Shown here piece after piece: positions 11,113 through 48,304 of a DNA stretch of 64,000 nt. Made by a program: the position numbers and the translations under genes. Within the stretch, counting starts at the first letter, position 1. Each line of letters opens with the position of its first letter. The notes below the pieces were generated by a model. That model was not told the origin of the DNA. It worked only from the letters and a program-made list of their open reading frames with translations, and made no database searches. The stretch is from Arcticibacter sp. (GTDB lineage Bacteria > Bacteroidota > Bacteroidia > 2-12-FULL-35-15), in assembly GCA_021155045.1 (NCBI GenBank), contig JAJNQB010000006.1, positions 126,832 to 190,831 of the forward strand, given 5' to 3'.

Positions 11113-11598
11113 TTAAGCTTTATTGTTTAGATTTTCTTTTTCGGCAAACATAAAAATGGGAATCAGAATCATCATCATAAAAGGCGATTGTTCTAACCCC
11201 ATTAAAAACCTTGAGAGTTCGTACATGCGTTCTGACGTGTTTTCAAAAAAATAGCCTATTCCCATAAATATTGCAGAGATAACCATTATAGTTGCGTATA
11301 GAAAAATAGAAATAGTTCTATATTTTTTATTGTTAAATAAAATTTTCAAAACCAATAAAAGTATAATTAAAAATAAACCAGAAAACACAATTGTTAATAC
11401 CCATTTTAAATTCGTTACAGTATCATAATCGTAATTTTTCAAGAAAGATAAACTTGGATGAATGGGATAATCCATATCATAATCCCAAGCTTGTAGCAAG
11501 GCGTTGATGCTTCTGAAAACATAATCCCTGTAAAAGCTTAAAAATAATACTAAAGCGAGAATTAAAAATAGAGTCCCGTTTTTTTTTGATCGATTCAT
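11113..11598 (-). CDS. small polytopic membrane protein, function unknown
   Basis: 4 predicted TM segments. The internal Met ([16 protein letters not shown]) at 11598 is the likely start. Divergent from the giant T9SS gene. Confidence 0.45.
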
Positions 11599-11738
11599 AG
11601 ATAAAACAAAATTAATATAAATGTTAGTTTGTTTTAATTTTAATTCACACATCGATTAATAATTGTGTTTTGTCGAAATGTTTTGATTTTTAATTATTTA
11701 ACATTAAATTCGCTAACATTATTTACCCTTGATAAAAC

Positions 11739-14700
11739 ATGAATAAACAATTGTCACCCCTGTTGTTATTCTTGTTGTTTGCCTTTGCTGGATTTTTTGC
11801 TAATGCTCAAAGCATTGCAAATTATGCTTCTGTGCGTACAACAGGTATAACTTATGCTTCAATATCAACTTCTGGTAATGCAATAGATAGTTGGCGAAAC
11901 AATGGAGCTTTTTCTCAAGACGATAATCGTAGCAATGCTACCGATATTGGATTTGATTTTTGGTATAATGGAACTCGTTATACACAATTTAGTGTTTCCA
12001 CAAATGGATATGTCGATTTTTCTTCATCTACAGCTAATGGAGGGGCAACAAATGGCCCTTATGGTTATGATAATACACAATTTACCGGAAATGGTGCTGG
12101 TACCTGGTTAGCTTTGGCTCCTTTTTATGATGACATGACAGCACAAGGAGGAACTGCTGCTCTTGGTAATAGTATAAAATATTTAGTCTCAGGAACTGCG
12201 CCAAATCGTGTACTTACCATTGAATGGATAAACATGGCTGTTTATTTAAATACAACTCCTAGTTTAAATTTTCAAGTAAAATTATATGAAACCACTGGAG
12301 TAATTGATTTTGTGTATGGTACTATGACGCAGGGAACAGCGAATTTTACATATACCTGCGGGATAAATGCAGCTACTTTAGCCAATACGCCTACTGTTGC
12401 TCAGCTTAAATGTCAGCAAGCTGCTAATTCTAATACATTCAGTAATTTTGAACAGAATTCTCTAACGGCAATGCCTACGAGTAATTCTAGAATAACTTTT
12501 ACTCCGCCCGTTACTACTCCTGCTTCTCCATCTGGGACATTAACATTTACTGGAGTTTCTCAAACGGGTATGACTGTTAATTGGGTTAACTGGAGTACAA
12601 ATGAAGTTGCTTATGTTTTATACAACTCTACAGATAATATTAATTTCAGCTTTGCTGCGCAAACCGCTGCAAATGTGACTTCTTATGCTTCAACAGGTTT
12701 ATTGCCTGGAACAACTTATTACTGGAGATTATATGCTGTTACTGATGGGTATCTTAGCACTTCAATAAATGGAAATCAAATAACCAATGCTGCTGGAAAT
12801 GTAATTTCAATTGCAACCGGTAATTGGAATCAAACTACTACATGGAATTGTGGATGTATTCCTTCTGCAGGTGATAATGTAACCATTGCAAACACGCATA
12901 CGGTGAGTATCAATGTAAATGCAAATTGCAATAATTTAACTGTTGGACAAGGAACGTCCGGAATATTGAGATTTACAGGAGGCACCAATTTGACAATGAA
13001 TGTAAATAATAGTATAGTTGTGAACAATGGAGCCACATTTAATGTTCAAAATAATGCAGTACATCAGTTGTATTTGGGTGGGAGTTTAACAAATAATGGC
13101 GTTTTGGATTTTGGACAAAACGTTAATAGAGCTTGTAATTTAAATTTAATAAAAAACGGAAACTCTTTTCTGGCAGGTACTGGCAGCATTAATAGGTATA
13201 ACGATATTATATTGAGCATGGGAAATTCCATTAATAATACATTGGAAGTTTCATCTTCAGTTTTTACTATAAAATCTGACTTTTTATTTTTAAATACTGG
13301 TACTTTTAAACTTTCAACTCCCAATACAATATCCTTAATTCCATTTTCTGGAGTTTCAACAATAAACAATAATTCTGGAATTATTGTTAATAGTGCTACT
13401 GCAACAGTTACATTTGGTAATACAATAAATTTATATGGGAACTTAATTGTAAATGCCGGCACCGTTAATATTGGAAATGCGAATAATGAAAATGTGGCTT
13501 CAAATGGTGGTACATTTCAAATAAATGGAGGAACAGTAAATATTGCAGGGCAATACTATTCTGCAAATATTAACACACTTGCTAAATTTACGATGGCAGC
13601 AGGAACACTTACTTTACCCACCTCTGGTTGTACTTCTACAACCATTGCTCCTTTTCATATTGATGGAGCTGGCTCAACTTTTAACATGAGTGGAGGTACA
13701 ATTGTAATTCAACGAGAAGGAGGAGCAGGACCACAGAACTTAGGTTATACAGTTCTAAATATTGCAAACAGCGCTGTAACCGGAGGTACGCTTCAAATAG
13801 GAAATGCAACTACTCCCGCTGCTCATATAATGAATATTAATAGTTCTGCAAGGGTTGGAAATTTATTAGTGTCAAGTGCCAATGCAACAGGTATGCTTAA
13901 TACTAACTCCTTAACAGTTACAAATAATATTACAATTGCTTCTGGTATTTTAAATTCGAGCAATCTAAATTTTACGCTTGGTGGCATTTGGACTAACAAT
14001 TCAACATTCACAGCAGGTACAGGGACGGTTATTTTTAACGGTACTGTAGCACAAACGTTAACAGGAAGTGTAGTTACAACCTTTAATAATTTAACAATGA
14101 ATAACACCAGTGGAAGTGGTGTTACATTGGGAATAAATACAAATGTTGGAGGTATTTTAAATTTTATTTCAGGAGTAATAACAACAAATACATTTAGAGT
14201 GATTATAAATCCAACGGGTTCTGTAACAGGTGCGGGTACAGGAAGGTTTGTAAATGGCTTTTTACAAAAAAATGTTGCAACAGGAACAAACGTTACAAGA
14301 AATTACGAAGTTGGGTTTGGGTTTACAGATTATTTACCTGTTAGTTTAACATTCGCTAGTGTTACAACTGCTGGCAATGTAACAGCAAAAGTGTTTAATG
14401 GTGACCATCCTAATATTGCAACGTCATGCATTGATGATTTAAAGAGTGTAAATCGTTATTGGCAAATAACAAATACTGGAACTGCGTTTACAAATTATTC
14501 TGCAACTTGTAATTTTATTGGTGTAGGTTCAGATGCGGATGCTGGTTCAGTTCCTGCAAATTATTTTATGGCACTTTATAATGGTGCTGCTTGGACAACA
14601 TTAACACAAGGAACAACAGCTTCAACTTCCAATCAAGCTACTGTAATTACAGCAATTGGGGCACTACAAGTAGGAGAGAGAAGAGGTCCTGTAATTACAA

Positions 14701-17700
14701 CGCAGCCAATAAACGTAACTGCTTGCAATGGAAATCCTGCTACTTTTTCAGTTGTAGCTAGTGGTTTTGGACTAACATATCAATGGCAACAGAATACAGG
14801 TAGTGGTTTTACAAATTTAGCCAATGGTGGAATTTATTCGGGCGTTACTACTTCAACATTAAATATATCAGCAGTAACTACAGGTATGAATGGATATTTA
14901 TACCGTTGTATTGTAACTTCTACAACTTGTGGAGGAAGCACAACTTCATCTAATGCAACATTAACTGTAAATGCAGCCGCAGGAGCAAGCATTACAATTT
15001 CTGCGAGCCCATCGAATAACATTTGTGCAGGAACCTCGGTTACATTTACAGCAACTATTACCAATGGTGGTGCTACTCCTGCTTATCAATGGCAACTAAA
15101 TGGAACAAATGTAGGAACGAATTCACCTACTTATATTAATTCAACTTTAAATAATGGAGATGTTGTGATGTGTATTTTAACTTCATCTGCTAGTTGTGTT
15201 CCCGGTCCTGTAAATTCGAATAATATTACAATGACTGTGAATCCTATTGTTCCTGTAAGTGTTTCAATTGCTGCAGCTCCTTCTGGTACTATTTGTTTTG
15301 GAACAAATGTTTCATTTACTGCAACTCCTGTAAATGGAGGTGTAAGTCCTACCTATCAATGGAAATTAAATGGATTAAATGTTGGAACAAATTCACCTAG
15401 CTACTCAAATTCAACATTATTGAATGGTGATATAATATCCTGTGAACTCACGTCTAGTGAAACTTGTATAACAGGAAGCCCTGCTACAAGTAATGCTATT
15501 ACTCAATCGGTAACACTTCTTGGTACATGGTTAGGAACAGCTTCTTCTGATTGGAACAATGCTTCAAATTGGTGTGGAGGAATTCCAACAAACTTAATTA
15601 ATGTTACTATTCCTTCTGGAACTCCATTTTCACCTCAATTAACAGCTGCTGGAAATTGTAGAAATATTAATATTGCTGCTGGAGTAATTTTAGATTTGAA
15701 TAATAATATCTTAAATGTATTTGGTGCTTTTTCAGGAACGGGAGAATTAAGAGGCTCATTATCTTCGGCAATAGCAATTCAGAGTGGAGCAGGAAGTGCA
15801 GGAACATTTTATATGGATCAAACAACTGCAGGTGTAACAAATAATTTAGACGTTATTACTGTTAATAGAACTGGTTCAACATTAACAATTGCAAATCCTT
15901 TAAATGTAACAAGTACAATAAATATTCAAGCAGGAACTTTTGCCACTGGAAACAATTTAACACTTGTATCTAATTCAACAAAAACAGCTCGTGTAGCTCA
16001 ATTAAATGCTGGGGCAGACATAACTGGTAATGTTACCATGCAACGATACATACCAAGCGGAACAGATGGTTGGATATTTTTATGTGCCCCAGTTTCTGGA
16101 ATAACTTTACAACAATGGGATGATGATGTAATAACTGGAGGTTTCCCCGGTTCGCAGTATCCACCTCCAACAGTTACTAATTCTTCGATTTATTCCTATA
16201 ACGAAGCATTGCCTGGTATTTATGATGATGGCTATGTTACACCTTCCAATATTACAGACCCAATAACTCCTCGAAAAGGATATTGGATGTATATCATGGG
16301 AACACCTTTAATTTTCGATGTTACAGGACCTTTATTAAAAGGAACACAAAATTTTGCTGTTACTTATACAGATGATCCTGCACAACCTGCTTATGAAGAT
16401 GGTTGGAATTTAATTGCAAACCCTTATCCTTCCACAATTGATTGGGATGGGGCTGGTTGGACAAAAACAAATGTTGCGGATGCAGTATATATGTATAACC
16501 CTACTTTAGATCAATATACCAGCTATGTGGGTGGTATAGGAACAAATGGAGGCTCCAATTTGATAGCATCTTCTCAAGCGTTTTTAGTGCAAACAACAGG
16601 CGCAAGTCCTGTATTGCAATTAACAGAAGCTGCAAAAAATGCAACCGATGGAATTTTTATTCGTTCATCTTCATCAAGTACGGATGATATTTTGAAATTA
16701 AATTTATCAGGAAACAGCTTTACCGATGAAACAATTATTCGATTTAATTCAAACGCCACAAATTCTGTAGATATAGATTACGATGCTTTAAAATTTTATA
16801 GTTATGGTACGGCTGTCCCAAGTATTGGCTCCATGCTTATTGATACTACAAATTATTCGATTAATTCTATTCCTTTATTAACAGCCGATTTAGTTATTCC
16901 AATAAAAGTGAAAGTTGGACTTTCTGGAACGTATACAATCAATTTGGATAGCATTTCAAGAATACCCGAAGGCTCTTGTTTAATTCTTATTGATTTAAAA
17001 ACAGGAATTCAAACAGATTTAAGAACAACTCCAAGCTATTCGTTTTATATTGTTGATACCACTACTTATCCTCGTTTTAGATTAAATATTGGCAAACCAA
17101 TACAAACATCTTCAATTGCTTCGTCTTGTAGTGCAACACCAGACGGTTCTGCTACAGCAACAGGAAATGGAGTAGGGCCATTCACATACACTTGGCAAAA
17201 TTCTTTAGGAACTATTTTACAAACTTCATCCAATATTTTTGGCTCAAATACCTTGAATAATATTCCGTCAGGTGATTATACTGTTACTATTTCTGGAAAT
17301 TCAGGAGTTTGTAATACTGTTTCAACTATAGTTTTTGTTGATGGCTTAGATGTAATTAATGTGTCTAGTACTGTTTTCAATGCAAGTTGCTCTGGCATAG
17401 CAGATGGCGGTATCGTTATTGATACAACCACAGGAGGTGTTTCACCATATACTTATAGTTGGTCGAATGGAAGTACAACAACAAATAATATGGGAATTAC
17501 TTCAGGTAATTATCAATTAACAATAACAGATAGTATTGGTTGTGCTCAACAAATTAATTTTAATGTTCCTCAAAATTCTGCTATTTCTGCTGGATTTACT
17601 TCCAGCACAGATACTGTTTACTTGTTGAGCAATGCACCTGTTGATTTTACAAATACATCAAATGGAGCAATAACTTATACTTGGGATTTTGGTGATGGAT

Positions 17701-18110
17701 CTGCAAATGACAATAGTCAAAATCCTTCCTACATCTATAAAATAGAAGGAACTTATACTGTTACTTTGATTGTGTCTGATGGAAATTGCACGGATACAAT
17801 TACTCAAGTTATTTATGTAATTAATAGTATAGATCCAACTGGAATAAATGAAATAGATTTAGAAAGCCTAGTTTCTGTTTATTCAAACAACTTCAATAAT
17901 TCAATTGATATTTTATTTAATTTAAACACACAACAAAAAGTTAAGATTGAAATATTTAATTCAATCGGACAAAAAGTTGTTGCAGATAATGAATTACAAG
18001 CACAGAAGAATAAACATAGTATTGACTTTGCTGATAAAGCAAAAGGTGTTTATCATATTAGGCTTTTAATAGGCAAGGAATTGATAACAAAGAAAATTGT
18101 AACCAATTAA
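11739..18110 (+). CDS. giant (2123 aa) T9SS-secreted cell-surface adhesin-like protein: beta-helix-like N-region, 3 tandem Ig-like repeats, SprB repeats, PKD domain, T9SS type-A CTD
   Basis: Signal peptide. Three ~95-aa repeats (…YQWQxNGxNVGTNSPxYxNSTLxNGDxxxCxLTSSxxC…) lie at about aa 985-1270. SprB-type repeats (C..DG...GG.sPYTYSW) lie at about aa 1790-1900. PKD-like 'YTWDFGDGS' is present. The C-terminus 'KGVYHIRLLIGKELITKKIVTN' is a T9SS CTD. Confidence 0.85.
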   Translation: MNKQLSPLLLFLLFAFAGFFANAQSIANYASVRTTGITYASISTSGNAIDSWRNNGAFSQDDNRSNATDIGFDFWYNGTRYTQFSVSTNGYVDFSSSTANGGATNGPYGYDNTQFTGNGAGTWLALAPFYDDMTAQGGTAALGNSIKYLVSGTAPNRVLTIEWINMAVYLNTTPSLNFQVKLYETTGVIDFVYGTMTQGTANFTYTCGINAATLANTPTVAQLKCQQAANSNTFSNFEQNSLTAMPTSNSRITFTPPVTTPASPSGTLTFTGVSQTGMTVNWVNWSTNEVAYVLYNSTDNINFSFAAQTAANVTSYASTGLLPGTTYYWRLYAVTDGYLSTSINGNQITNAAGNVISIATGNWNQTTTWNCGCIPSAGDNVTIANTHTVSINVNANCNNLTVGQGTSGILRFTGGTNLTMNVNNSIVVNNGATFNVQNNAVHQLYLGGSLTNNGVLDFGQNVNRACNLNLIKNGNSFLAGTGSINRYNDIILSMGNSINNTLEVSSSVFTIKSDFLFLNTGTFKLSTPNTISLIPFSGVSTINNNSGIIVNSATATVTFGNTINLYGNLIVNAGTVNIGNANNENVASNGGTFQINGGTVNIAGQYYSANINTLAKFTMAAGTLTLPTSGCTSTTIAPFHIDGAGSTFNMSGGTIVIQREGGAGPQNLGYTVLNIANSAVTGGTLQIGNATTPAAHIMNINSSARVGNLLVSSANATGMLNTNSLTVTNNITIASGILNSSNLNFTLGGIWTNNSTFTAGTGTVIFNGTVAQTLTGSVVTTFNNLTMNNTSGSGVTLGINTNVGGILNFISGVITTNTFRVIINPTGSVTGAGTGRFVNGFLQKNVATGTNVTRNYEVGFGFTDYLPVSLTFASVTTAGNVTAKVFNGDHPNIATSCIDDLKSVNRYWQITNTGTAFTNYSATCNFIGVGSDADAGSVPANYFMALYNGAAWTTLTQGTTASTSNQATVITAIGALQVGERRGPVITTQPINVTACNGNPATFSVVASGFGLTYQWQQNTGSGFTNLANGGIYSGVTTSTLNISAVTTGMNGYLYRCIVTSTTCGGSTTSSNATLTVNAAAGASITISASPSNNICAGTSVTFTATITNGGATPAYQWQLNGTNVGTNSPTYINSTLNNGDVVMCILTSSASCVPGPVNSNNITMTVNPIVPVSVSIAAAPSGTICFGTNVSFTATPVNGGVSPTYQWKLNGLNVGTNSPSYSNSTLLNGDIISCELTSSETCITGSPATSNAITQSVTLLGTWLGTASSDWNNASNWCGGIPTNLINVTIPSGTPFSPQLTAAGNCRNINIAAGVILDLNNNILNVFGAFSGTGELRGSLSSAIAIQSGAGSAGTFYMDQTTAGVTNNLDVITVNRTGSTLTIANPLNVTSTINIQAGTFATGNNLTLVSNSTKTARVAQLNAGADITGNVTMQRYIPSGTDGWIFLCAPVSGITLQQWDDDVITGGFPGSQYPPPTVTNSSIYSYNEALPGIYDDGYVTPSNITDPITPRKGYWMYIMGTPLIFDVTGPLLKGTQNFAVTYTDDPAQPAYEDGWNLIANPYPSTIDWDGAGWTKTNVADAVYMYNPTLDQYTSYVGGIGTNGGSNLIASSQAFLVQTTGASPVLQLTEAAKNATDGIFIRSSSSSTDDILKLNLSGNSFTDETIIRFNSNATNSVDIDYDALKFYSYGTAVPSIGSMLIDTTNYSINSIPLLTADLVIPIKVKVGLSGTYTINLDSISRIPEGSCLILIDLKTGIQTDLRTTPSYSFYIVDTTTYPRFRLNIGKPIQTSSIASSCSATPDGSATATGNGVGPFTYTWQNSLGTILQTSSNIFGSNTLNNIPSGDYTVTISGNSGVCNTVSTIVFVDGLDVINVSSTVFNASCSGIADGGIVIDTTTGGVSPYTYSWSNGSTTTNNMGITSGNYQLTITDSIGCAQQINFNVPQNSAISAGFTSSTDTVYLLSNAPVDFTNTSNGAITYTWDFGDGSANDNSQNPSYIYKIEGTYTVTLIVSDGNCTDTITQVIYVINSIDPTGINEIDLESLVSVYSNNFNNSIDILFNLNTQQKVKIEIFNSIGQKVVADNELQAQKNKHSIDFADKAKGVYHIRLLIGKELITKKIVTN

Positions 18111-18210: not shown

Positions 18211-18240
18211 AGAGGAAGCTTAAATAACTTCCTCTTTTTG
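18211..18240 (+). terminator. rho-independent terminator (agaggaag/cttcctct 8-bp stem + T5) downstream of the giant adhesin gene
   Basis: Perfect 8-bp inverted repeat followed by 'tttttg'. It overlaps the stop codon of the convergent xrtF. Confidence 0.5.
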
Positions 18241-18756
18241 TTTTAAACTTACTTTGTTTGTCCAAAGCATCCACATAAAAAAGATAAAGGCATAAATTAC
18301 AATTGTAAACGTGTAGGTATGATTAAATTCTGTCCATGCTCTAGACTTTGTATCTAATATTGCAAGTGTTACAATTCTAATGATATTCAATACTTCAATA
18401 GAAATAATTCCGATACTAATAAAAACTAATTTTTTCCACCATTTGCCTTTTGGATAAGCAACGATGAACCAAGTGAAAAGTGCAAACAAGGTAATGCCAT
18501 TGCAATTATCTCCAATCCAAAGTCCTCCTGTTCCATCAACACCAATAACACGTTCAACTCCTGTGAATACTCGGTAATTCATTAATTCTAAAACAAATTT
18601 GCTTATATCAACTGTTAGATTAATAACAAATAAATCTATTGTTTCGTTCGGATGTAGCCATAGATTATACACTAGATACCAGAGTATATAAAGAGAAAAC
18701 AGGCGGATAATAAATTTTACAATTGGATTTTTTAGGTACTCAAGAATAAGATTCAT
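18220..18756 (-). CDS. xrtF: exosortase-family transpeptidase, short Bacteroidetes type (XrtF-like)
   Basis: 178 aa polytopic membrane protein. The catalytic-Cys motif 'DNCNGITLF' is of the C-[SN]-G exosortase type. The conserved Arg motif 'NIIRIVTLAILD' and a downstream His/Asn ('EFNHTY') are present. Size and motifs match the short exosortase F class. Confidence 0.7.
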   Translation of the reverse strand: MNLILEYLKNPIVKFIIRLFSLYILWYLVYNLWLHPNETIDLFVINLTVDISKFVLELMNYRVFTGVERVIGVDGTGGLWIGDNCNGITLFALFTWFIVAYPKGKWWKKLVFISIGIISIEVLNIIRIVTLAILDTKSRAWTEFNHTYTFTIVIYAFIFFMWMLWTNKVSLKQKEEVI

Positions 18757-18772
18757 GAAGTAAAGTTACAAA

Positions 18773-18804
18773 GAAAAAATCCCGTTTTAAACGGGATTTT
18801 TTTT
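18773..18804 (-). terminator. weak hairpin + U-run (possible attenuator/terminator) between the 74-aa gene and xrtF
   Basis: 'aaaaaatcccgttttaaacgggatttttttt' is a 5-6 bp GC stem with A6/T8 flanks. The stop codon of the 74-aa ORF lies in the loop. Confidence 0.35.
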
Positions 18805-19011
18805 AGTTGAATCGTATATCTTTTTTGCTCCAAAAATAATTCCTACAGCAATGAGTAGCCAAACACTACTATCCAAAGGAACTGGACAAGGAGGAAATGG
18901 ACCTCCGCAGGGAGCAGGCGGTCCGCTACCCATACCTGCTTTAGCCGTATTTGCTAAAAAGGGAGAAAATAACAAGAACGATACTATAAATATTTTTACA
19001 ATTTTATTCAT
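18787..19011 (-). CDS. small secreted Gly/Pro/Cys-rich protein with C-terminal PEP-CTERM-like tripartite tail (candidate exosortase substrate)
   Basis: Signal peptide MNKIVKIFIVSFLLFSPFLANTAKA. Mature core GMGSGPPAPCGGPFPPCPVPLD. Then a hydrophobic helix SSVWLLIAVGIIFGA, then basic KKIY…KK. It is co-directional with xrtF and immediately upstream of it. Confidence 0.55.
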   Translation of the reverse strand: MNKIVKIFIVSFLLFSPFLANTAKAGMGSGPPAPCGGPFPPCPVPLDSSVWLLIAVGIIFGAKKIYDSTKKNPV

Positions 19012-19060
19012 ATAGCTTTTTAATTTAAGACAAAATTAAAATTTATTTGTTAATACACTA

Positions 19061-21469
19061 TTATTTAATAAATTTTTTAACAACAGCACCTTTTTGATTT
19101 TCTACTTTAATAATGTAAACACCATTAAAGTTTTCTGGTAAAGCAACAAATACACTTTGGTTGCTAGCCTGTACAGAAAGGTTTTCGATAATGTTTTGTC
19201 CTAAAATATTTGTAACACTTATAGTAGTATTGTATGTTTCATCAAAGTTGAAATAAACTGTATTTCCATTTGTGTTCTGTAAAATTTGAATATTGTTTTC
19301 AATAGTGTTAGCAATAGAAGCAGCACTAATCATTGATTTACAATTTCCATTTTTAGAGAAGTGTAATATAAAACGATTTTTGTTGTCGTTTGTGTTGTAA
19401 GAAAATGTATAAGAGTTTTGCTCGTTAAGATTAATAAAATTATTTAGTAATGCATCTTCCAAAACAACACATGAATAATCTCCTACAAATTCCAATCCTT
19501 TTGCATCAATTGTAAATGTTCCATTTAAAATTGAATTTACTTCCAGTGGAATAGAATATTCTTCATTGTAAGAATTAAAAGTGTTAATTACCGATTTTTT
19601 CCCATCAATTGAACAAGTAATGCTTGGTGCTTCTTTTACTGGACTTTTTCTGAACGGATGATCCTCGTTCATATCAAATCCATTTGAAGCAGTATTGTTA
19701 GCAGCAAATTTAATCGTATGACTGTATTTACTGTTGTTATTTGTTAAATCAAGCATAAAATAAGGCTGAATAACATTCATATTCCTTAATGAGCTATTAG
19801 AAGAAGCTGTTTTTGCAGATTCATTTATTATTAGTGTTGGAGCACCTGTTGAATAAACCCAAAAACCTTGCCCTGCACCAATTTCTGTTCCAGCACCAAA
19901 AGTTGAATAGTTACCAACTGTGTAATCAAAAACATCATACGTTCCGCTTAAATTTGAGGAAGCTGCTAGTACAGAATTCCAGGAAATACTAGATGCAAAT
20001 GGATTTCCAACCAAATTAGAGCCAGCATTTGAAAAAGAAACTAAACTACTTAAATTTTGGTCGCCTTGGTTTGGAGTTCCCAATGTTGTAAGGGTTGTAT
20101 TAGGTAAATCAGCATAATTATAATCACCAGAAAGATAAACTTCATAGCCTTTGCCTGGTGTTAAAGCTGTTGTGTTGGTTGTGATAGCTACAAAATCATC
20201 CAAAGGCTCACTATAAGAATATTGAGTTGGATAGCTTGCAGGGGGAGCATATACATAGTACCTTGCAGGTAATTCTGCATCCCAATCAGCAAAGGTAGAT
20301 GCTTGAACAGGCGAAGCCATATCAGCCCATGTTGCAACTCTTGAGTTAATGAATCTCTGTATTGTAAAACTTCCAGAAATAGCACCTGTTCCAGTAATAG
20401 GAGCAATTCTTGCTGTTTGTCCAGCAGTTGATGTCATTGTAAAGCTAAGTCCATTAGTGTTAAATGTCCCATTGCTAATTGTTAGTACTTCATTCAAAAT
20501 ATAGGTTCCGCTCGAAAGGGAAACTCCAGAAGTATTATTTACAGCTAATCCTGTAAAAGTTGTTGTTCCTCCTCCAGAAAGGGTTTGTGCTGCGGATCCA
20601 TTAAAAGTAACAGTTCTTCCAGCACTTGCAGTAAAGTTTCCGTTCTTAACCCAATTTCCGCCAACGGTTAAATCAAAATTATTTGAATTTAAAGTGTTAT
20701 TGGCATTTATAGTTAAATTGTTTGCAACTATGGTGTTTGAAGGTAGTGTTTTTGTATTTGAAATAGTACCTGATAGTATAAGATTATTATAACCAGATGT
20801 TGTTAAAGGGATATTTCCATTAGTATTATATTTTAAATCAACGGTATTTCCAGATGCTGATGCAGTAAATGTTCTGCCTAACATAAAATTGGTTGCTGTT
20901 AGTGTAAGAATAGCGTTTGTACCATTAATAAAAGTTGCTCCAACTGCAGTAGGAACATTAGAAATTGTTAAACTCCCCAAATTAGTGACAGTTGCATTTG
21001 AAATACTAAAACTAGTTCGTTTTGTTATTGTTGTTCCTGCAGAAATAGTTCTAGATGACCCACTTGCAAAAGTATATCTAACACCTGTTCCAGATGATGA
21101 AAATGTACCACTACCAGAAATCGTTAATCCTGGGGTGTTGGGAAAAATGATTGCCCCATTGTTACCTGCTTCAGTACCATTTACAGTATAATTGCCCCAA
21201 ATTTGAAGAACACCAGGACTATTGACTGTGATTGTGCCTAAAACTGTTAATGCTAAACAGTAGCTTGATGTATTATTTGTAATGTTGTGGCCAGCTAAAA
21301 TAGTCAAGTTATCATCATAATCAGGAATTCCATCAGCATCAAATCCAACAACAGTCCAAGAAGCTGGGGTATTCCAATTGCCAGCTACAACATTAGAAGT
21401 AAAAGTTGCGGAATTAGAAATCAAGAATGAAAAAGTGGCAAAACAAAAAAGTAGGATAATTTTTTTCAT
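19061..21469 (-). CDS. T9SS-secreted surface protein (802 aa), truncated paralog of the 2123-aa adhesin
   Basis: Signal peptide. The segment 'FDLTVGGNWVKNGNFTASAGRTVTFNGSAAQTLSGGGTTTFTGLAVNNTSG' aligns with 'FTLGGIWTNNSTFTAGTGTVIFNGTVAQTLTGSVVTTFNNLTMNNTSG' of the giant protein. A second shared module surrounds 'PGKGYEVYLSG' / 'PRKGYWMYIMG'. T9SS CTD 'NGVYIIKVENQKGAVVKKFIK'. Confidence 0.8.
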   Translation of the reverse strand: MKKIILLFCFATFSFLISNSATFTSNVVAGNWNTPASWTVVGFDADGIPDYDDNLTILAGHNITNNTSSYCLALTVLGTITVNSPGVLQIWGNYTVNGTEAGNNGAIIFPNTPGLTISGSGTFSSSGTGVRYTFASGSSRTISAGTTITKRTSFSISNATVTNLGSLTISNVPTAVGATFINGTNAILTLTATNFMLGRTFTASASGNTVDLKYNTNGNIPLTTSGYNNLILSGTISNTKTLPSNTIVANNLTINANNTLNSNNFDLTVGGNWVKNGNFTASAGRTVTFNGSAAQTLSGGGTTTFTGLAVNNTSGVSLSSGTYILNEVLTISNGTFNTNGLSFTMTSTAGQTARIAPITGTGAISGSFTIQRFINSRVATWADMASPVQASTFADWDAELPARYYVYAPPASYPTQYSYSEPLDDFVAITTNTTALTPGKGYEVYLSGDYNYADLPNTTLTTLGTPNQGDQNLSSLVSFSNAGSNLVGNPFASSISWNSVLAASSNLSGTYDVFDYTVGNYSTFGAGTEIGAGQGFWVYSTGAPTLIINESAKTASSNSSLRNMNVIQPYFMLDLTNNNSKYSHTIKFAANNTASNGFDMNEDHPFRKSPVKEAPSITCSIDGKKSVINTFNSYNEEYSIPLEVNSILNGTFTIDAKGLEFVGDYSCVVLEDALLNNFINLNEQNSYTFSYNTNDNKNRFILHFSKNGNCKSMISAASIANTIENNIQILQNTNGNTVYFNFDETYNTTISVTNILGQNIIENLSVQASNQSVFVALPENFNGVYIIKVENQKGAVVKKFIK

Positions 21470-21702: not shown

Positions 21703-24051
21703 ATGATAGAGAAAAGAAAAGATAATTTAATAGAAATTGAAGATTTAAGAAAATTTTTAAAAATTTTTTCTAGAAATTGGATTGTTATTTTATTATTTAT
21801 TTCAGTTTCTTTTCTCGGGTCTTATGTATATACACACAAGCTTCCCGATATTTATGGGGCAAAAGCTCAAGTTTTATTGAAAAATAACGAAACGTATGAT
21901 TATCAAAACCAAATTTATAAGGGAATTGGTTATTATGCCACTTATCAAGACAATGCAAATCAAATTAGAGTATTAACCTCGAATGACCTAATCGCTCAGG
22001 TTATTTCTAAATTAAATTTAGATGTTTCTTATTTTATTATCGGAAGATTAAAAAAAACAGAAGTCTTTCAATCTGTTCCTTTTGAGGTAAAAATAAAAAC
22101 AATAAATCCTGCACTTTATGAGACGCCCATAAAAATTACAATCATTGACGAAGAACATTTTTCTTTAAGTTATTTAAAGAATGGGAGTTCAATGACTAAG
22201 AAATTTATGTTTAACAAATCTATCGAGGATCAGGATTTTTATATGATTGTAGAAAAAAATTCAATCATAAACAAGAACTCTATAGCCTCTTTAAATGAAA
22301 CGGATTATGAAATAGTTGTTTCGTCAAATGCATCATTAGTTGCAAAGTTTAAGAATAATCTTAGGGTTAATGAGATTGAAAGCACCACTATTTTAGAGCT
22401 GTTTTTAGAAGACGAAATACCTCTGAGGGCAATCAGTTTTTTAGATACGCTATCAAAAGTTTACATAGATTATACTTCAAAGTCCCAAATTATTATAAAC
22501 AATAATACAATTGATAATATTGATAAACAATTAAAAGAAATAACAGATGTACTTAAATCGATTGAGGATGACATGGAACTTTACCGTTCCGAAAAAGGTA
22601 TTTTAGACATAAATAGACAGCAAGATAATTATTTTGAAAAGCTAATTGATTTTGACACCAAAAAACGAGAACTAGAACTTTGGTCACAATCTTTGGAATC
22701 TTTACAAAAGTATATTATTTCGGTAGGTGATATATCAGACGAAAAACTTTTGCCCCCATCTTATTATATTGAACAGGGGGACGATTATTTAAAAGCAGCT
22801 TTGGGTAAATTGTATACCCTTCAAATGGATAGAAACCAACGATTAAATGGTTCAACTTTAAAGAATAGAAATATAAATGAAATTGATCAAGAACTTGATT
22901 TATTAAAAAAGAATATTTTAACGTATATTGATAATTCAAAAAAAGGCTTGAAAGACAGAATAACAGATATATCTAAACAGATTCAAGAATATACATCCAT
23001 TATAAAAACTGTTCCCAAAACTCAAAGAGATTTATTAAATATTCAACGTAAATTAGATGTGAACCAAAAAATGTATTCCTATCTTTTGGAAAAAAGAGCG
23101 AGTACTTTAATAGCAAAGGCTGGTATTTTACCTGAAACAAATGTTATAGAAGCTGCTCACAGTGTTGGAATTGTTGCCCCGAATAAGCGAAAGATAACAT
23201 ATTATTTTTTAGTTATTTCTTTATTTATTTCTGCTATTATTATATTTATTCGTCAAGTTTTTTATTATAGAATAGAAAATATTAATGAACTTAAAAGGCT
23301 TACAAATATTCCTGTTTTAGGAGAAATAATTCTTAATGATGCAAATCAAGAAAATTATATAATAGTGGATAAAGAAGTAAAATCGGCTATAACTGAAAGT
23401 TTTAGAGCAATCCGAACAGGATTGGAATATTTTGCAAGCAGTAACTCTTCCAAAATTGTTTTGCTTACATCTTATAACCCAGGAGAAGGTAAAACTTTTT
23501 GTTCTGTCAATCTTGCAACAATTTTGGCAAAAGGCGGAAAAAAAGTATTGTTGCTAGAATTGGACTTACATAAACCTAAAGTTCAGAAAGCATTTGATAT
23601 AGATGTTTCTGAAGGGATAACAAATGTATTAATTGGTAAATCTTCTATTGAATCTGTTGTAAAACAAACACATGTTGAAAATTTATCAGTTATGTTGGCA
23701 GGGCCAATTCCACCGAATGCTTCAGAATTAATTTTGAGCAAACACCTTTCTGAAATTTTTAACTATGGAAGACAAAATTTTGATTACGTAATTATTGACA
23801 CTCCTCCAATTGGTTTAATAACAGATGCATTTGTTATGATTAAAGATGTGGACATATCTCTCTTTGTAATAAATTCAAAAGTTGCAAGAAAACAAATAAT
23901 AAATATTGTGGAAGAAATGGTTGAAACAAATAAATTTCAAAATTTTGCCCTCTTACTTAATGGTGTGAAAAGAAACCGATCAAAATACTATTATAATTAT
24001 GGTTATGGTTATGGTTATGGTTATGGAAATTCACCAAAGTCTAAAAAGTAA
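21703..24051 (+). CDS. wzc: polysaccharide co-polymerase / BY-family tyrosine autokinase (Wzc-like)
   Basis: N-terminal Wzz-like domain with TM segments. Walker A 'GEGKTFCSVNLATILAKGGKKVLLLELDLHKP' and Walker B-like 'VIIDTPP'. Tyrosine-rich tail 'YYYNYGYGYGYGYGNSPKSKK'. Confidence 0.85.
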   Translation: MIEKRKDNLIEIEDLRKFLKIFSRNWIVILLFISVSFLGSYVYTHKLPDIYGAKAQVLLKNNETYDYQNQIYKGIGYYATYQDNANQIRVLTSNDLIAQVISKLNLDVSYFIIGRLKKTEVFQSVPFEVKIKTINPALYETPIKITIIDEEHFSLSYLKNGSSMTKKFMFNKSIEDQDFYMIVEKNSIINKNSIASLNETDYEIVVSSNASLVAKFKNNLRVNEIESTTILELFLEDEIPLRAISFLDTLSKVYIDYTSKSQIIINNNTIDNIDKQLKEITDVLKSIEDDMELYRSEKGILDINRQQDNYFEKLIDFDTKKRELELWSQSLESLQKYIISVGDISDEKLLPPSYYIEQGDDYLKAALGKLYTLQMDRNQRLNGSTLKNRNINEIDQELDLLKKNILTYIDNSKKGLKDRITDISKQIQEYTSIIKTVPKTQRDLLNIQRKLDVNQKMYSYLLEKRASTLIAKAGILPETNVIEAAHSVGIVAPNKRKITYYFLVISLFISAIIIFIRQVFYYRIENINELKRLTNIPVLGEIILNDANQENYIIVDKEVKSAITESFRAIRTGLEYFASSNSSKIVLLTSYNPGEGKTFCSVNLATILAKGGKKVLLLELDLHKPKVQKAFDIDVSEGITNVLIGKSSIESVVKQTHVENLSVMLAGPIPPNASELILSKHLSEIFNYGRQNFDYVIIDTPPIGLITDAFVMIKDVDISLFVINSKVARKQIINIVEEMVETNKFQNFALLLNGVKRNRSKYYYNYGYGYGYGYGNSPKSKK
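24001..24026 (+). repeat. (GGTTAT)x4.3 in-frame hexanucleotide tandem repeat encoding the (GY)n tail of Wzc
   Basis: 'ggttatggttatggttatggttatgg' read directly from the sequence. Confidence 0.9.
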
Positions 24052-24057
24052 TCTATT

Positions 24058-24909
24058 ATGGATTTAAATGGCAATTGGGATGTTGTAATTCAACCAAGAA
24101 CTAAATCTTTTGATTTTGGATTAAAAAATGTATGGCGTTATAAAGATTTATTGTTTCTTTTTATTAGACGTGATTTTATTGCTTTATACAAACAAACAAT
24201 ATTGGGACCTATTTGGTTTTTTTTACAACCTGTTATATCTGCTTTAGTCTTTACTGTTATTTTTGGATATTTTGCTAAATTAGATACAGAAGACGTTCCT
24301 CCAATTTTATTTTATCTAGGAGGACTTACCCTTTGGAATTATTTTGCCGAGTGTTTAAGTAAAACTTCTGAAACTTTTATTCAAAATCAGAATATATTTG
24401 GGAAAGTTTATTTTCCAAGATTAATTGTACCCATTTCAATTATTTTGTCAACTATGTTAAAGCTAGCAATACAGTTTTTTGTATTTCTGCTTTTTTGGTG
24501 TTATTATTATTTTTCAGGTAATAAAAACATTAATCCACAGCTTACAATTTTACTTTTTCCTGTATTAGTATTAATAATGGCTGGCTTAAGTTTAGGTTTT
24601 GGAATTATATTTTCATCTTTAACAACTAAATACAGAGATATAAAGTTTTTATTACAATTTGCAATACAGCTAATGATGTATTTATCATCAGTAGTAATAC
24701 CACTTTCTCAAATTCCTGAAAAGTATAAATTCTTAATTAAATTAAATCCAGTTGTGGCGGTTATTGAAACTTTTAAGCATGGTTTTTTAGGATCAGGGAT
24801 ATTCGATTTTTATAATTTAGTGTATAGCTTTTTATTTATGATAATTACTATTTTTATAGGATTGTTTTTATTTAGTAAAGTTGAAAAATCGTTTATGGAT
24901 ACTGTTTAA
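24058..24909 (+). CDS. wzm: ABC-2 type polysaccharide export permease (Wzm/KpsM-like)
   Basis: 6-TM ABC-2 permease, 283 aa, immediately upstream of the ATPase. Confidence 0.8.
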   Translation: MDLNGNWDVVIQPRTKSFDFGLKNVWRYKDLLFLFIRRDFIALYKQTILGPIWFFLQPVISALVFTVIFGYFAKLDTEDVPPILFYLGGLTLWNYFAECLSKTSETFIQNQNIFGKVYFPRLIVPISIILSTMLKLAIQFFVFLLFWCYYYFSGNKNINPQLTILLFPVLVLIMAGLSLGFGIIFSSLTTKYRDIKFLLQFAIQLMMYLSSVVIPLSQIPEKYKFLIKLNPVVAVIETFKHGFLGSGIFDFYNLVYSFLFMIITIFIGLFLFSKVEKSFMDTV

Positions 24910-24922
24910 AAAAATGTAATAA

Positions 24923-26179
24923 TTGAGCACAGTAATTAAAGTAGAAAATATAGGAAAACAATACCGCTTGGGACAAGTGGGAACAGGTACACTTTCTCAT
25001 GATCTTAATCGTTTTTGGCACCGTGTGCGAGGCAAAGATGATCCTTATTTAAAAATAGGTGAAATGAACGATCGTTCTGTTAAAGGGGCAAGCGATTGGG
25101 TTTGGGCTTTAAAAAATATCAGCTTTGATGTGAAACAAGGAGAAGTACTTGGCATTATTGGTAAAAATGGAGCAGGTAAATCTACTTTATTAAAACTTTT
25201 GTCTCAAGTTACACTGCCTTCAGAAGGTAATATTAAAATTAAAGGCAGAATAGCATCCTTACTTGAAGTGGGTACAGGGTTTCATCCAGAATTAACAGGT
25301 CGCGAAAATATATTTCTGAATGGGGCCATATTGGGAATGACCAAAGTCGAAATAAAAAGTAAGTTGGATGAAATTGTTGACTTTAGCGGAGTTGAAAAAT
25401 ATCTGGATACTCCAGTAAAACGTTACTCTTCAGGAATGATGGTGCGTTTAGGTTTTGCAGTAGCAGCACATTTGGAACCTGAAATTTTAATTGTGGATGA
25501 AGTGTTGGCAGTTGGAGATGCGGAGTTTCAAAAAAAATGTGTTGGTAAAATGAAAGATGTGAGTAGCGCAGGAAGAACTGTTTTGTTTGTAAGTCATCAA
25601 ATGGGAATTATAAATCAATTATGTGATAGAGCTATATTGTTAAAGGCTGGAAATATATTTGCTGACGGGGCAACAAAAAAAATAGTTGATCAGTATTTGA
25701 ATCTGGATGGAAATGATGCACAGTTTATTTATACCTGTACTCCGGAAAATTTGAAAAAGGAGAATGTAATTACAGAAGTAAGACCTTTAAATTTAAAAGG
25801 AGAGGATACTTCCAATTTTTCTTTTGAGGAATCCATTTCAATGCAAATTGTTTTTAAGGCAAATAGTCAAATTTCTGGGCTTAAGCTTGGGGTGGCTTTA
25901 ACTGATAATGTTCAAAACAGGGTTTTTACAGTTGTAAAAGATGTTGCTGAATTTAAAAAAATAAATAATACATATAACCAAAAAGTTATCTTTCAACCAG
26001 GGATGATCGCCCCAAATAATTATTCATTTATCATTGCTCTATTCGTTCCTGGAAAGCAAAATTATGAAGTTGTAGAAAATGTTTGTCCAATAAAAATTCA
26101 TGATGATGGTTCAAAATTAGCATTGTTCGAAGGACAAAATTATGGAAGCTTAATTATGAAAGAAATTTGGGAGTTATAG
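24923..26179 (+). CDS. wzt: polysaccharide ABC exporter ATP-binding protein with C-terminal extension (Wzt-like)
   Basis: Walker A 'GKNGAGKSTLLKLL', signature 'YSSGMMVRLGFA', Walker B 'ILIVDE'. An additional ~170-aa C-terminal domain, as in Wzt proteins with a carbohydrate-binding module. Uses a TTG start at 24923; the upstream ATG at 24914 is followed immediately by a stop. Confidence 0.85.
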   Translation: MSTVIKVENIGKQYRLGQVGTGTLSHDLNRFWHRVRGKDDPYLKIGEMNDRSVKGASDWVWALKNISFDVKQGEVLGIIGKNGAGKSTLLKLLSQVTLPSEGNIKIKGRIASLLEVGTGFHPELTGRENIFLNGAILGMTKVEIKSKLDEIVDFSGVEKYLDTPVKRYSSGMMVRLGFAVAAHLEPEILIVDEVLAVGDAEFQKKCVGKMKDVSSAGRTVLFVSHQMGIINQLCDRAILLKAGNIFADGATKKIVDQYLNLDGNDAQFIYTCTPENLKKENVITEVRPLNLKGEDTSNFSFEESISMQIVFKANSQISGLKLGVALTDNVQNRVFTVVKDVAEFKKINNTYNQKVIFQPGMIAPNNYSFIIALFVPGKQNYEVVENVCPIKIHDDGSKLALFEGQNYGSLIMKEIWEL

Positions 26180-46555: not shown

Positions 46556-48304
46556 ATGAAACCAGTACTTAATAGAAGGAATAATAATGAGTTGAATCGG
46601 AAATATATAAAAATATTTTTTTTTATTGTGTTAGCCGCTTTCTTTTGTTTCTTTTTTTTGTTTTATTTTTATTCAGAAACAGATAAGATAAATTCTGCTT
46701 TAGCTTTATCAGAAAAACTAGAAAGACCCACTTCCACACAAGAGAGCGGGTTGTATAATTCCCCTATCTTATTGAAATTAGAAGATAATAATAATACTAC
46801 TCAAATATTCTATACGCTTGATGGAAGTGAGCCATCAGTTAACTCTATTGAATATAAAAAACCTTTTAAAATAGAATGTAATAATAATACAAATCATTTA
46901 TCTAATATTCCCACTTCTCCTAGATGGAAGCCTCCGATTGGAGATGTTTTTAAAGGAACCATTTTAAGGGCTATTTGCGTTGATAAAATTAATAATATTA
47001 AAAGTAAAGAGCTGATTAAATCATTCTTTATAAATGCAGAGGAAAAAAATGAATATTCTATCCCTGTTGTTTCTATTGTAATTAATAAAGAAGATTTTTT
47101 TTCATATAAAAAAGGGATATACGTTTTAGGGAAAAATTATGAAGACAAGAGTGATTATATTAAAAAAAAATATAGTTTGGATATGCCATGGTGGTCTTAT
47201 CCTGCAAACTATTTGTCTAAGGGAAAAAATGCAGGCAGAAAGATTTGGATTGAATATATAAATACAAATAATACAGTTTCTTTTTCTACTTATGCTGAAG
47301 CAAAAATAAATGGAAATGCAACTAGGGGCTTTGCTCAAAAATCTTTAAGAATTTCATTAGATTCAAAAATGGGGAAAGAACATGTTGATGGAATTAAGAT
47401 AGACACCATTTTTAAAAATAAAATTTATTCTTTTGTATTAAGAAATTCGGGGAACGACTGGGATAAAACTTTATTTAGAGATGAGTTTATGCAGTCATTA
47501 ATGGTAAAAACTAATTTATCAACTCAAAGTTCTATTCCTGTGCTTGTTTTTATAAATGGTGAATATTGGGGAATTCATCATTTGAAAGAAAAAATTGATG
47601 AATTTTATTTTTCTGAAAAGTATGGTTTGAATATAGATAGTTTAACTATATTAGAAAACATGGGAACTTTAGTTTACGGCAGTAAACAGGATAGTAAAGA
47701 ATTTGAAAAATTACTTGATTTTTGCAAAAATAAAGACCTATCATTGAAAATCAATTACGATTATCTCTCAAAAAAGATTGACATCGAAAATTTTATGGAT
47801 ATGATAATTGCCAATGTTTATTTCTGTAATTCTGATTGGCCAAACAATAATGTGAAATATTGGAGAAATAATAATAAGGTTGTTTGTGCTGATTCCATAA
47901 GGGCTGGAGATGGGAGGTGGCGCTGGATATTATTTGATACAGATTGGGGATTTGGGTACACTAGTAGCAATGCTTATGAGTTGGATTTGCTTGATAAGGC
48001 TAAGCATGTAGGTAGCGTTGGGGTGATTTTTAGCTCATTATTAAAAAATCAAGATTTTTTAACTAAATTTAAAATAAGGTTCAATTATCATTTATTAAAT
48101 ACTTTTGATAATGAAAAAGTGGAGCACCTGATTAATGATTTTCAAAAAAAATATTCTCCAGAAATACAAGAACATATAAATCGATGGAGAATAATTGGTT
48201 CGGTTAAAAATTGGGATAAAAATGTTGAAGATTTGAAAATATTTTCTAAAAAGAGAATGGAAATACAAAAAAAGCAATTAGATTTTTTTTTAAAAAATCA
48301 ATAA
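46556..48304 (+). CDS. CotH-family atypical protein kinase, N-terminally membrane-anchored
   Basis: 'FVLRNSGNDWDKTLFRDEFMQS…VLVFINGEYWGIHHLKEKID' and 'NVYFCNSDWPNNNVKYW…RWRWILFDTDWGFGY' are CotH motifs. N-terminal TM. Confidence 0.75.
   Translation: MKPVLNRRNNNELNRKYIKIFFFIVLAAFFCFFFLFYFYSETDKINSALALSEKLERPTSTQESGLYNSPILLKLEDNNNTTQIFYTLDGSEPSVNSIEYKKPFKIECNNNTNHLSNIPTSPRWKPPIGDVFKGTILRAICVDKINNIKSKELIKSFFINAEEKNEYSIPVVSIVINKEDFFSYKKGIYVLGKNYEDKSDYIKKKYSLDMPWWSYPANYLSKGKNAGRKIWIEYINTNNTVSFSTYAEAKINGNATRGFAQKSLRISLDSKMGKEHVDGIKIDTIFKNKIYSFVLRNSGNDWDKTLFRDEFMQSLMVKTNLSTQSSIPVLVFINGEYWGIHHLKEKIDEFYFSEKYGLNIDSLTILENMGTLVYGSKQDSKEFEKLLDFCKNKDLSLKINYDYLSKKIDIENFMDMIIANVYFCNSDWPNNNVKYWRNNNKVVCADSIRAGDGRWRWILFDTDWGFGYTSSNAYELDLLDKAKHVGSVGVIFSSLLKNQDFLTKFKIRFNYHLLNTFDNEKVEHLINDFQKKYSPEIQEHINRWRIIGSVKNWDKNVEDLKIFSKKRMEIQKKQLDFFLKNQ

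Follow-up and report, generated by a model that had tools for sequence, protein, structure and literature searches.

A probable exosortase X/PID-CTERM system with a tiny substrate precursor beside a polysaccharide locus of Arcticibacter sp.

Proteins of the EpsH (exosortase) family carry three invariant motifs, Cys-x-Gly, Asn-x-x-Arg and His-x-x-x-Gly (Haft et al. 2006, PMC1569441). Within the wider superfamily, archaeosortase A (ArtA) represents the only branch with experimentally studied substrate cleavage and covalent lipid anchoring (PMC7157517). [quoted passage not shown] Another system is known only from database models: NCBIfam holds a consecutive curated set made of NF046080 (PID-CTERM), NF046081 (exosortase X, XrtX) and NF046082 (XrtX-associated membrane protein). 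Here we analyse a stretch of 64,000 nucleotides from Arcticibacter sp. (Bacteroidota; contig JAJNQB010000006.1, positions 126,832 to 190,831), hereafter the window, in which a 178-aa exosortase and a 74-aa protein encoded immediately upstream very probably constitute an XrtX/PID-CTERM system, in which the sorting enzyme would be dedicated to essentially a single substrate, whose gene adjoins its own. The elements of this system are the following:

18220..18756, minus strand: xrtX, exosortase X of 178 aa (NF046081 match)
18502-18504, 18376-18378 and 18319-18321, minus strand: putative catalytic codons of XrtX for Cys85, Arg127 and His146, respectively
18787..19011, minus strand: PID-CTERM precursor gene (PID gene), 74 aa (NF046080 match)
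18937-19011, minus strand: signal peptide of the precursor, aa 1-25, ending in AKA
18883-18936, minus strand: Pro/Gly/Cys core of the precursor, aa 26-43, 18 residues by these limits (18-22 as a range), with two Cys (GMGSGPPAPCGGPFPPCP)
18811-18882, minus strand: PID-CTERM sorting signal, which starts at aa 44 (NF046080 match span, aa 44-67)
11113..11652, minus strand: putative XrtX-associated membrane protein, longest ORF of 179 aa (NF046082)

Judged by its profile matches, the 178-aa enzyme is XrtX and not XrtF, as the earlier note on this DNA had called it. It scored 174.8 bits against NF046081 (cut-off 170), with model positions 2-167 of 168 aligned, and failed the models of XrtF (TIGR04128; 66.4 bits, cut-off 90) and XrtY (70.9 bits, cut-off 160); in the NCBIfam scan, the XrtA and 8TM_EpsH models gave no match to it. 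The broader assignment to the exosortases made in that note proved correct, as the protein passed both the exosortase/archaeosortase signature TIGR04178 (52.2 bits, cut-off 23) and Pfam Exosortase_EpsH (PF09721; 41.1 bits, cut-off 25.7). It contains the motifs C85-N-G87, N124-I-I-R127-I and N145-H146, with C85, N124, R127, N145 and H146 invariant among the 30 sequences (58-75% identity) of our alignment A1. Thus, XrtX keeps the Cys-x-Gly and Asn-x-x-Arg motifs of the EpsH family, while in the third one H146 is kept and followed by T-Y-T-F, where Phe replaces Gly. The AlphaFold2 (AF2) model (pLDDT 87) is that of a helical membrane protein.

The idea that this is an XrtF system whose missing substrate has now been found draws on the size of the protein, which is that of XrtF, on its occurrence in the same phylum, on the sub-threshold XrtF match and on the presence of a small membrane partner, adjacent as in XrtF systems (PMC10936215). 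In addition, an older JGI annotation names many of the homologues 'exosortase family protein XrtF', which explains the label given in the earlier note. We nevertheless consider it extremely improbable. Besides the two scores given above, nine other members of the family that we tested reached 175-197 bits on the XrtX model and 76-97 on that of XrtF; a single locus (L057) exceeded the XrtF cut-off with 97.1 bits, and its XrtX score was about double. Moreover, no exosortase F system-associated protein was found next to the window enzyme, since the partner-like ORF matches the XrtX-associated model and no other family at E up to 0.001. Even the most distant loci, with 34-37% identity, pass the XrtX and PID-CTERM cut-offs, including those of two cultured species (Pontibacter mucosus DSM 100162 and Nafulsella turpanensis ZLM-10). 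The remark that no substrate had been defined for XrtF agrees with the literature (PMC10936215, PMC12188702) but does not apply to the enzyme of the window. The view that the arrangement could not be mapped onto any described system did not hold either, as the three models are curated and the labels 'exosortase X' and 'PID-CTERM protein-sorting domain-containing protein' are already in use at NCBI for some homologues.

The second element, the 74-aa protein, reads MNKIVKIFIVSFLLFSPFLANTAKA, then GMGSGPPAPCGGPFPPCP, then VPLD-SSVWLLIAVGIIFGA-KKIYDSTKKNPV. Its C-terminal part consists of VPLD at the membrane boundary, a 15-residue helix rich in small residues and the basic tail KKIYDSTKK, and thus has the exosortase-type tripartite form already recognised in the earlier note. 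It scored 29.6 bits against NF046080 (cut-off 26, E 4.2e-7), with a match that takes in PLD, the helix and the first residues of KKIYDSTKK, while the tail extends to the C terminus; the PEP-CTERM models gave no match to the protein at E up to 1. Across 22 homologues, PCGGPFPPCPVPLD is invariant. As far as sequence can tell, this is a real sorting signal and not a chance look-alike.

The family to which this protein belongs consists almost wholly of equally small proteins. With E up to 10, a profile search with 44-aa segments retrieved 2818 clusters (90% identity), the best 120 of which were all 42-86 aa long, and a HMMER search of 1.84 billion representatives retrieved 564 PID-family clusters at 50% identity (E up to 1e-3). 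Among sequences from the best 150 of these 564 clusters, 146 out of 149 measured 54-117 aa and had the same plan; the other three, long proteins that match only with an internal Pro/Gly-rich low-complexity part and have no tail, were discarded as family members. We found no PID tail on large proteins among the listed HMMER matches, and scanning the window and the 67 loci described below (~0.85 Mb of flanking DNA) with a tail HMM and a regular expression revealed no further tails on larger proteins. The constant features of the family are a signal peptide, a Pro/Gly-rich spacer, [VI]-P-[ILV]-D-G-G, a Gly/Ala-rich helix and KK[ILF]Y..KK, and the mature part has a median of 22 aa, with 28% Pro and 18% Gly. 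Its core diverges from CGGPFPPC to CWPPPC and then to sequences without Cys, with the [VI]P[ILV]DGG motif, the helix and the KK[ILF]Y..KK tail retained throughout. The Cys pair occurs in only ~55% of the representatives (P0247-P0395); it takes the form PCGGPFPPC in the clade of the window, where it is invariant, and CWPPPC in others. In ~70% of the same representatives, a small residue followed by Gln lies just past the hydrophobic core of the signal peptide; the 74-aa protein of the window, with AKA|GMG, does not have this Gln. Most PID-family proteins P0121-P0246 carry the precomputed Pfam label PF28310.1, which suggests that Pfam has also recently added the family. Since the PID-CTERM family is almost wholly made of ~75-aa proteins with a ~22-aa mature peptide, these searches make XrtX look like a sortase dedicated to a tiny peptide precursor, the only substrate that could be detected for it.

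To place the locus in a comparative framework, we scanned one genome per species. Of the 67 loci recovered, all from Bacteroidota and mostly from metagenome-assembled genomes, 65 have an intact xrtX; counts out of 66 refer to these together with the window. The PID gene was the immediate same-strand upstream neighbour of xrtX in 55/66 loci by script and in 57/66 once two overlapping over-long ORF calls were counted. It lay within 8 kb of xrtX in two more loci. In L038 and L061, the gene occurs unlinked to xrtX. By this linkage, the PID gene and xrtX are best described as a conserved enzyme/substrate cassette. Around this cassette, the window contains the following genes:

11739..18110, plus strand: T9SS type-A-C-terminal domain (CTD) adhesin-like protein, 2123 aa, with fn3, Ig and PKD domains (TIGR04183)
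19061..21469, minus strand: T9SS type-A-CTD protein of unknown function, 802 aa (TIGR04183)
21703..24051, plus strand: Wzc-like chain-length determinant/tyrosine autokinase (TIGR01007, 168.8 bits; Wzz and GNVR domains)
24058..24909, plus strand: Wzm permease (ABC2_membrane domain)
24923..26179, plus strand: Wzt ATPase (ABC_tran and Wzt_C domains)

The cassette borders a polysaccharide (EPS) locus, which begins divergently with the last three genes (21703..26179, plus strand) and continues with glycosyltransferases. The simplest and most widespread order among the loci is a divergent Wzc gene followed by PID, xrtX, partner and glyA, and in 34 loci the divergent gene beside the cassette encodes a Wzc homologue. 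In the clade of the window, an 802-aa-type T9SS gene lies between Wzc and PID, and a large convergent T9SS adhesin gene often lies between xrtX and the partner. In L001, L003-L006, L010 and L035, the gene after xrtX is a giant convergent one of the adhesin family, with the partner visible beyond it in L003, L005 and L035; in the window itself, it is the 2123-aa gene, convergent with xrtX, that displaces the partner by 6.5 kb. A different arrangement characterises the clade of L039, L040 and L045-L047, with uppS and bamA on the upstream side and a giant T9SS adhesin gene following the partner on the same strand.

The partner ORF itself matched NF046082 with 68.1 bits (E 6.6e-19, cut-off 75). 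Its homologues, of 141-170 aa, are encoded immediately after xrtX in 27 loci and beyond an intervening adhesin gene in 6 more. A candidate start at Met19 (ATG 11596-11598) would give a protein of 161 aa rather than 179, and this is probably the true start instead of the first ATG. The earlier note's pairing of an exosortase with a substrate at the edge of an EPS locus is supported by the conserved cassette of PID gene and xrtX, but the note had missed this probable third component.

Two regulatory features accompany the PID gene:

19031..19038, minus strand: TAATTTTG, a −7 element match in the 49-nt gap between the 802-aa T9SS gene and the PID gene
18774..18802, minus strand: intrinsic-terminator-like hairpin with a 13-bp stem, spanning the stop codon of the PID gene

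The first begins 27 nt before the ATG of the PID gene and exactly fits TAnnTTTG, the consensus of the Bacteroidetes sigma-A −7 element (PMC6847099). An exact TAnnTTTG occurs within 90 nt upstream of the PID gene in 36/59 loci, mostly at 22-32 nt from the ATG, compared with 5.4% of random 90-nt windows. The motif is frequent by itself, with 64 occurrences on the minus strand of this AT-rich window, and the evidence for a promoter therefore rests on its conserved position. Another TAATTTTG box is found at 11607-11614 (minus strand), 8 nt upstream of the Met19 ATG of the partner, and so the partner gene, split off from xrtX, seems to have a promoter of its own. A second TAnnTTTG near the cassette, at 18831-18838 inside the small ORF, was rejected as an xrtX promoter because it sits upstream of the hairpin; it also appears unlikely to be conserved, since homologues encode AGAAYGG in place of GIIFGA (a comparison at the protein level only).

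In the hairpin, an A-run pairs with a downstream T-run, the codons for KKNP form the 5' arm and the TAA stop codon is in the loop; the structure ends 17 nt before the ATG of xrtX and has a dG of −14.4 kcal/mol (z −4.6, 200 shuffles). As loop-length indels misalign the 3' arm in the MAFFT alignment, the hairpins were compared by folding each sequence and then arm by arm. An equivalent hairpin (z below −2) was found in 43/59 small genes, a count that includes L032, L041 and L061, where z reflects a different structure. It is present throughout the CGGPFPPC clade except in L011 (stem mismatch, z −1.05). The stem covaries: at one of its positions we counted 15 G-C, 15 A-U, 6 G-U and 0 A-C combinations (Fisher 1.4e-5, although the lineages are not independent), and the whole stem is compensated in L017 (CCTG/CAGG), L036 (TCTCGA/TCGAGA) and L030 (ACCTTCC/GGAAGGT). 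A scan with sigma-70 and terminator consensus models, which are ill-suited to Bacteroidota, gave nothing above shuffled sequences and missed the hairpin because its T-run belongs to the stem. The KKNP(A/V) C terminus (18790-18804, minus strand), which doubles as the 5' arm, is likewise found in L001-L036, L042, L048, L058 and L066, and the PID C terminus is variable in clades without hairpin, so that the conservation of KKNPA in the clade of the window is explained in part by the RNA constraint.

The three minus-strand ORFs of 178, 74 and 802 aa are present as the earlier note described them, but it is doubtful that the T9SS gene heads a single transcription unit made up of all three. With its own conserved −7 box and a terminator hairpin separating it from xrtX, the PID gene is unlikely to belong to a simple operon of that kind. 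We found no terminator between the 802-aa T9SS gene and the PID gene, and some co-transcription of the two may occur. We propose instead that the PID gene would be a strongly expressed unit transcribed from its own promoter, with a leaky terminator at which most transcripts would end before xrtX, yielding far more substrate than enzyme. Because the loop of the hairpin holds the stop codon, a ribosome terminating there could block hairpin formation, and read-through into xrtX might in this way be coupled to translation of the substrate.

The same geometry could be read as that of a 74-codon ORF acting mainly as a regulatory leader peptide that controls xrtX transcription, the peptide itself having no role: the stop codon, 24 nt before the xrtX start (17 nt for the last base of the stem), lies in the loop of a conserved terminator, and the ORF is rich in Pro-Pro runs, which slow ribosomes. 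This is highly unlikely, however, considering that the signal peptide and the PID tail are conserved as protein in 564 clusters at 50% identity, hairpin-free clades included, that the gene also occurs unlinked to xrtX in two loci, and that a curated protein model recognises the small protein.

Under the preferred XrtX/PID-CTERM reading, the precursor would be exported by Sec and cut by signal peptidase I after AKA25, the likely site. The C-terminal helix would then tether it in the inner membrane with P-L-D at the periplasmic face, and XrtX would cut it at the P-L-D motif or close by, Cys85 acting as nucleophile with help from Arg127 and His146, so that the helix and the tail are removed. The partner at 11113-11652 would probably aid XrtX, a role proposed by analogy with F. 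johnsoniae, where genetics shows the XrtF partner to be necessary (PMC10936215). The acyl-enzyme would be resolved by release of the ~20-residue peptide into water or, with greater likelihood, by its transfer to an acceptor in the envelope, either a lipid or a sugar. By analogy with ArtA (PMC7157517), this acceptor might be a lipid; by genomic context, it might be what the Wzc/Wzm-Wzt locus next to the cassette produces, that locus being the obvious candidate source.

It is also conceivable, though unlikely, that the small protein stays uncleaved as a single-pass subunit or regulator of XrtX or Wzc, or that it is only hydrolysed, releasing a free Pro-rich peptide. The low complexity of a cargo of just ~22 residues would fit such a role, as would a KK[ILF]Y[DN]xxKK tail more conserved than a positive-inside anchor requires, and no acceptor is known for any exosortase. 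On the other hand, the boundary between periplasm and membrane falls exactly at the conserved P-[ILV]-D-G-G, a tripartite layout is the hallmark of sortase-type cleavage signals (PMC1569441) and the nucleophile triad of the enzyme is invariant; as to the C terminus, the KKNPA conservation belongs partly to the RNA hairpin and is lost in hairpin-free clades.

Several observations also weigh against the XrtX/PID-CTERM reading as a whole. The partner scores below its cut-off and sits 6.5 kb from xrtX, and no PID gene was found within the retrieved flanks of seven loci. For a sorting system, a cargo of only ~20 residues is unusual. In the CWPPPC clades, the gap between PID and xrtX is mostly 6-22 nt and has no hairpin, so that the proposed stoichiometry device is not universal. 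No exosortase structure exists against which the active-site geometry could be checked, and our text search of the literature retrieved no paper on 'PID-CTERM' and no relevant one on 'XrtX' or 'exosortase X'. Finally, whereas sequence features and gene linkage are direct observations, we infer cleavage, its site and the acceptor from the exosortase/archaeosortase paradigm.

The flanking T9SS genes deserve separate consideration, since the earlier note had seen in them two sorting systems wired together. The 802-aa protein is indeed a T9SS cargo by TIGR04183 (34.7 bits, cut-off 23), although it remained below the gathering threshold of Pfam Por_Secre_tail (21.4, gathering 27), and the 2123-aa protein, with PKD, Ig_3 and fn3 domains, matched TIGR04183 with 32.4 bits (cut-off 23). 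The two are paralogues that have in common a module of ~400 aa (28% identity, E 5e-32). We found no sequence relative of the 802-aa protein in PDB, and its AF2 model (pLDDT 44), built from an alignment that contained only the window paralogue, was unusable. Altogether, the 64 kb contain four T9SS cargo genes among ~55 genes, the other two being:

1617-4352, minus strand: M43 peptidase/PKD protein, T9SS type-A-CTD, 911 aa
30923-32647, plus strand: SBBP beta-propeller protein, T9SS type-A-CTD, 574 aa, among glycosyltransferases

The link with T9SS is suggestive and not a core feature: adhesin genes are frequent neighbours that stand outside the core machine. A functional coupling would mean that the XrtX-processed peptide, bound to a lipid or polysaccharide, anchors T9SS adhesins, or that both products join the same polymer. 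In favour of it, an adhesin-family gene is found within two genes of the cassette in 46/66 loci, 45 of the 46 adhesin-family C termini match TIGR04183, and the neighbourhood takes three geometries (directly upstream of the PID gene on the same strand in 39/53, convergent after xrtX in 15 and same-strand downstream of the partner in 5). T9SS type A cargo is, moreover, transpeptidated onto the amine of a glycolipid (PMC7468200, PMC13086638), and an anchored peptide with a free N terminus is therefore a conceivable acceptor. However, the clades L049-L060 and L062-L064, which include Sediminibacterium, Vicingaceae and Cytophagales, keep PID, XrtX and partner without an adjacent adhesin gene, and T9SS cargo genes are in any case dense in the window. 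The PID gene, with its own promoter box and terminator, forms no clean operon with the T9SS gene, and XrtX works at the inner membrane whereas PorU does so at the cell surface. In Bacteroidetes, Gln following the signal-peptide cleavage site leads to a pyroglutamate-blocked N terminus (the 'Q-rule'). The Gln present in ~70% of the family representatives fits such a blocked end, which argues against the PID peptide as a general PorU acceptor. We thus regard the coupling as quite unlikely, and equally doubtful its more specific form, in which the peptide, bound to a lipid or to the Wzc/Wzm-Wzt polysaccharide, would be a surface docking or anchor element for the flanking T9SS adhesins. If true, it would imply a physical hand-off between the inner-membrane exosortase pathway and type IX secretion and attachment.

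Concerning the rest of the window, the polysaccharide locus extends over ~36 kb (24000-60000), all on the plus strand, with a steady positive GC skew (cumulative 0.19 to 3.1). It includes two CotH-kinase-like proteins (46556-48304 and 49659-52238, plus strand), unusual for an EPS cluster; Fn3-associated/CHB_HEX_C domains are present in one, and in the other the kinase-like part is fused to a right-handed beta-helix. At its far end, a 1061-aa protein (60476-63661, minus strand) is a large envelope protein of unknown role whose N terminus shows a weak, sub-threshold match to DUF748 (42.3 bits versus 50). Rfam and tRNA scans of the 64-kb window gave no matches.

The enzyme, substrate and partner trio is already known and curated in NCBIfam, and the window is another copy of it in Bacteroidota. 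New, as far as we could find, are the essentially 'cargo-less' nature of the substrate family, reduced to a ~22-aa Pro/Gly-rich peptide; the conserved promoter box and stop-codon-spanning terminator of the small gene; and the splitting of the cassette by an adhesin gene, with T9SS adhesin genes as recurrent, not universal, neighbours. The value of the window thus lies in its annotation, as XrtX instead of XrtF and as a three-part system split by an adhesin gene, and in the two regulatory features. To our knowledge, there is no bacterial exosortase with defined chemistry, the cleavage site and the acceptor being unknown even for XrtA. The XrtX family is the most stripped-down case, with a 178-aa enzyme, one ~160-aa partner and one mature substrate of ~20 residues; a product this small is very well suited to mass spectrometry and there are carriers in culture, so that the family could open the question of the exosortase acceptor to direct testing. 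The family further suggests that the substrate missing for XrtF may be an equally small ORF that has escaped annotation.

Compared with the XrtX system of NCBIfam, the window conforms in that enzyme and substrate tail pass their cut-offs. The order of PID, xrtX and partner is the family norm, from which the window departs in its partner, recognised by the model with a score just below the cut-off (68.1 versus 75) and distant behind the convergent 2123-aa gene, and in the 802-aa T9SS gene that precedes the PID gene. The T9SS route, with type A CTD, PorU and anionic lipopolysaccharide (A-LPS), follows a similar scheme of C-terminal signal, transpeptidase and glycolipid (PMC7468200, PMC13086638), but its machinery is unrelated and located at the outer membrane, and the conserved XrtX cassette includes none of the T9SS components. 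Archaeosortase A and PGF-CTERM of Haloferax volcanii belong to the same superfamily (TIGR04178) and use the same signal logic; ArtA differs from XrtX in being archaeal, in having large S-layer and surface proteins as substrates and in its motif. With XrtF (Fjoh_1448/1449 in F. johnsoniae), XrtX has in common a short exosortase of Bacteroidota with a small membrane partner encoded adjacent to it, but the two form separate HMM subfamilies, and XrtX has an obvious substrate adjoining whereas none is known for XrtF (PMC12188702). Finally, the system resembles XrtA/EpsH and PEP-CTERM in its tripartite signal, its Cys/Arg/His motifs and its association with an EPS locus and a Wzc-type kinase (PMC1569441). 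However, whereas XrtA has eight or more transmembrane segments and tens of diverse substrates per genome, usually encoded in single-gene operons, XrtX is a protein of 178 aa that apparently serves one substrate of ~75 aa, marked by P-[ILV]-D instead of P-E-P.

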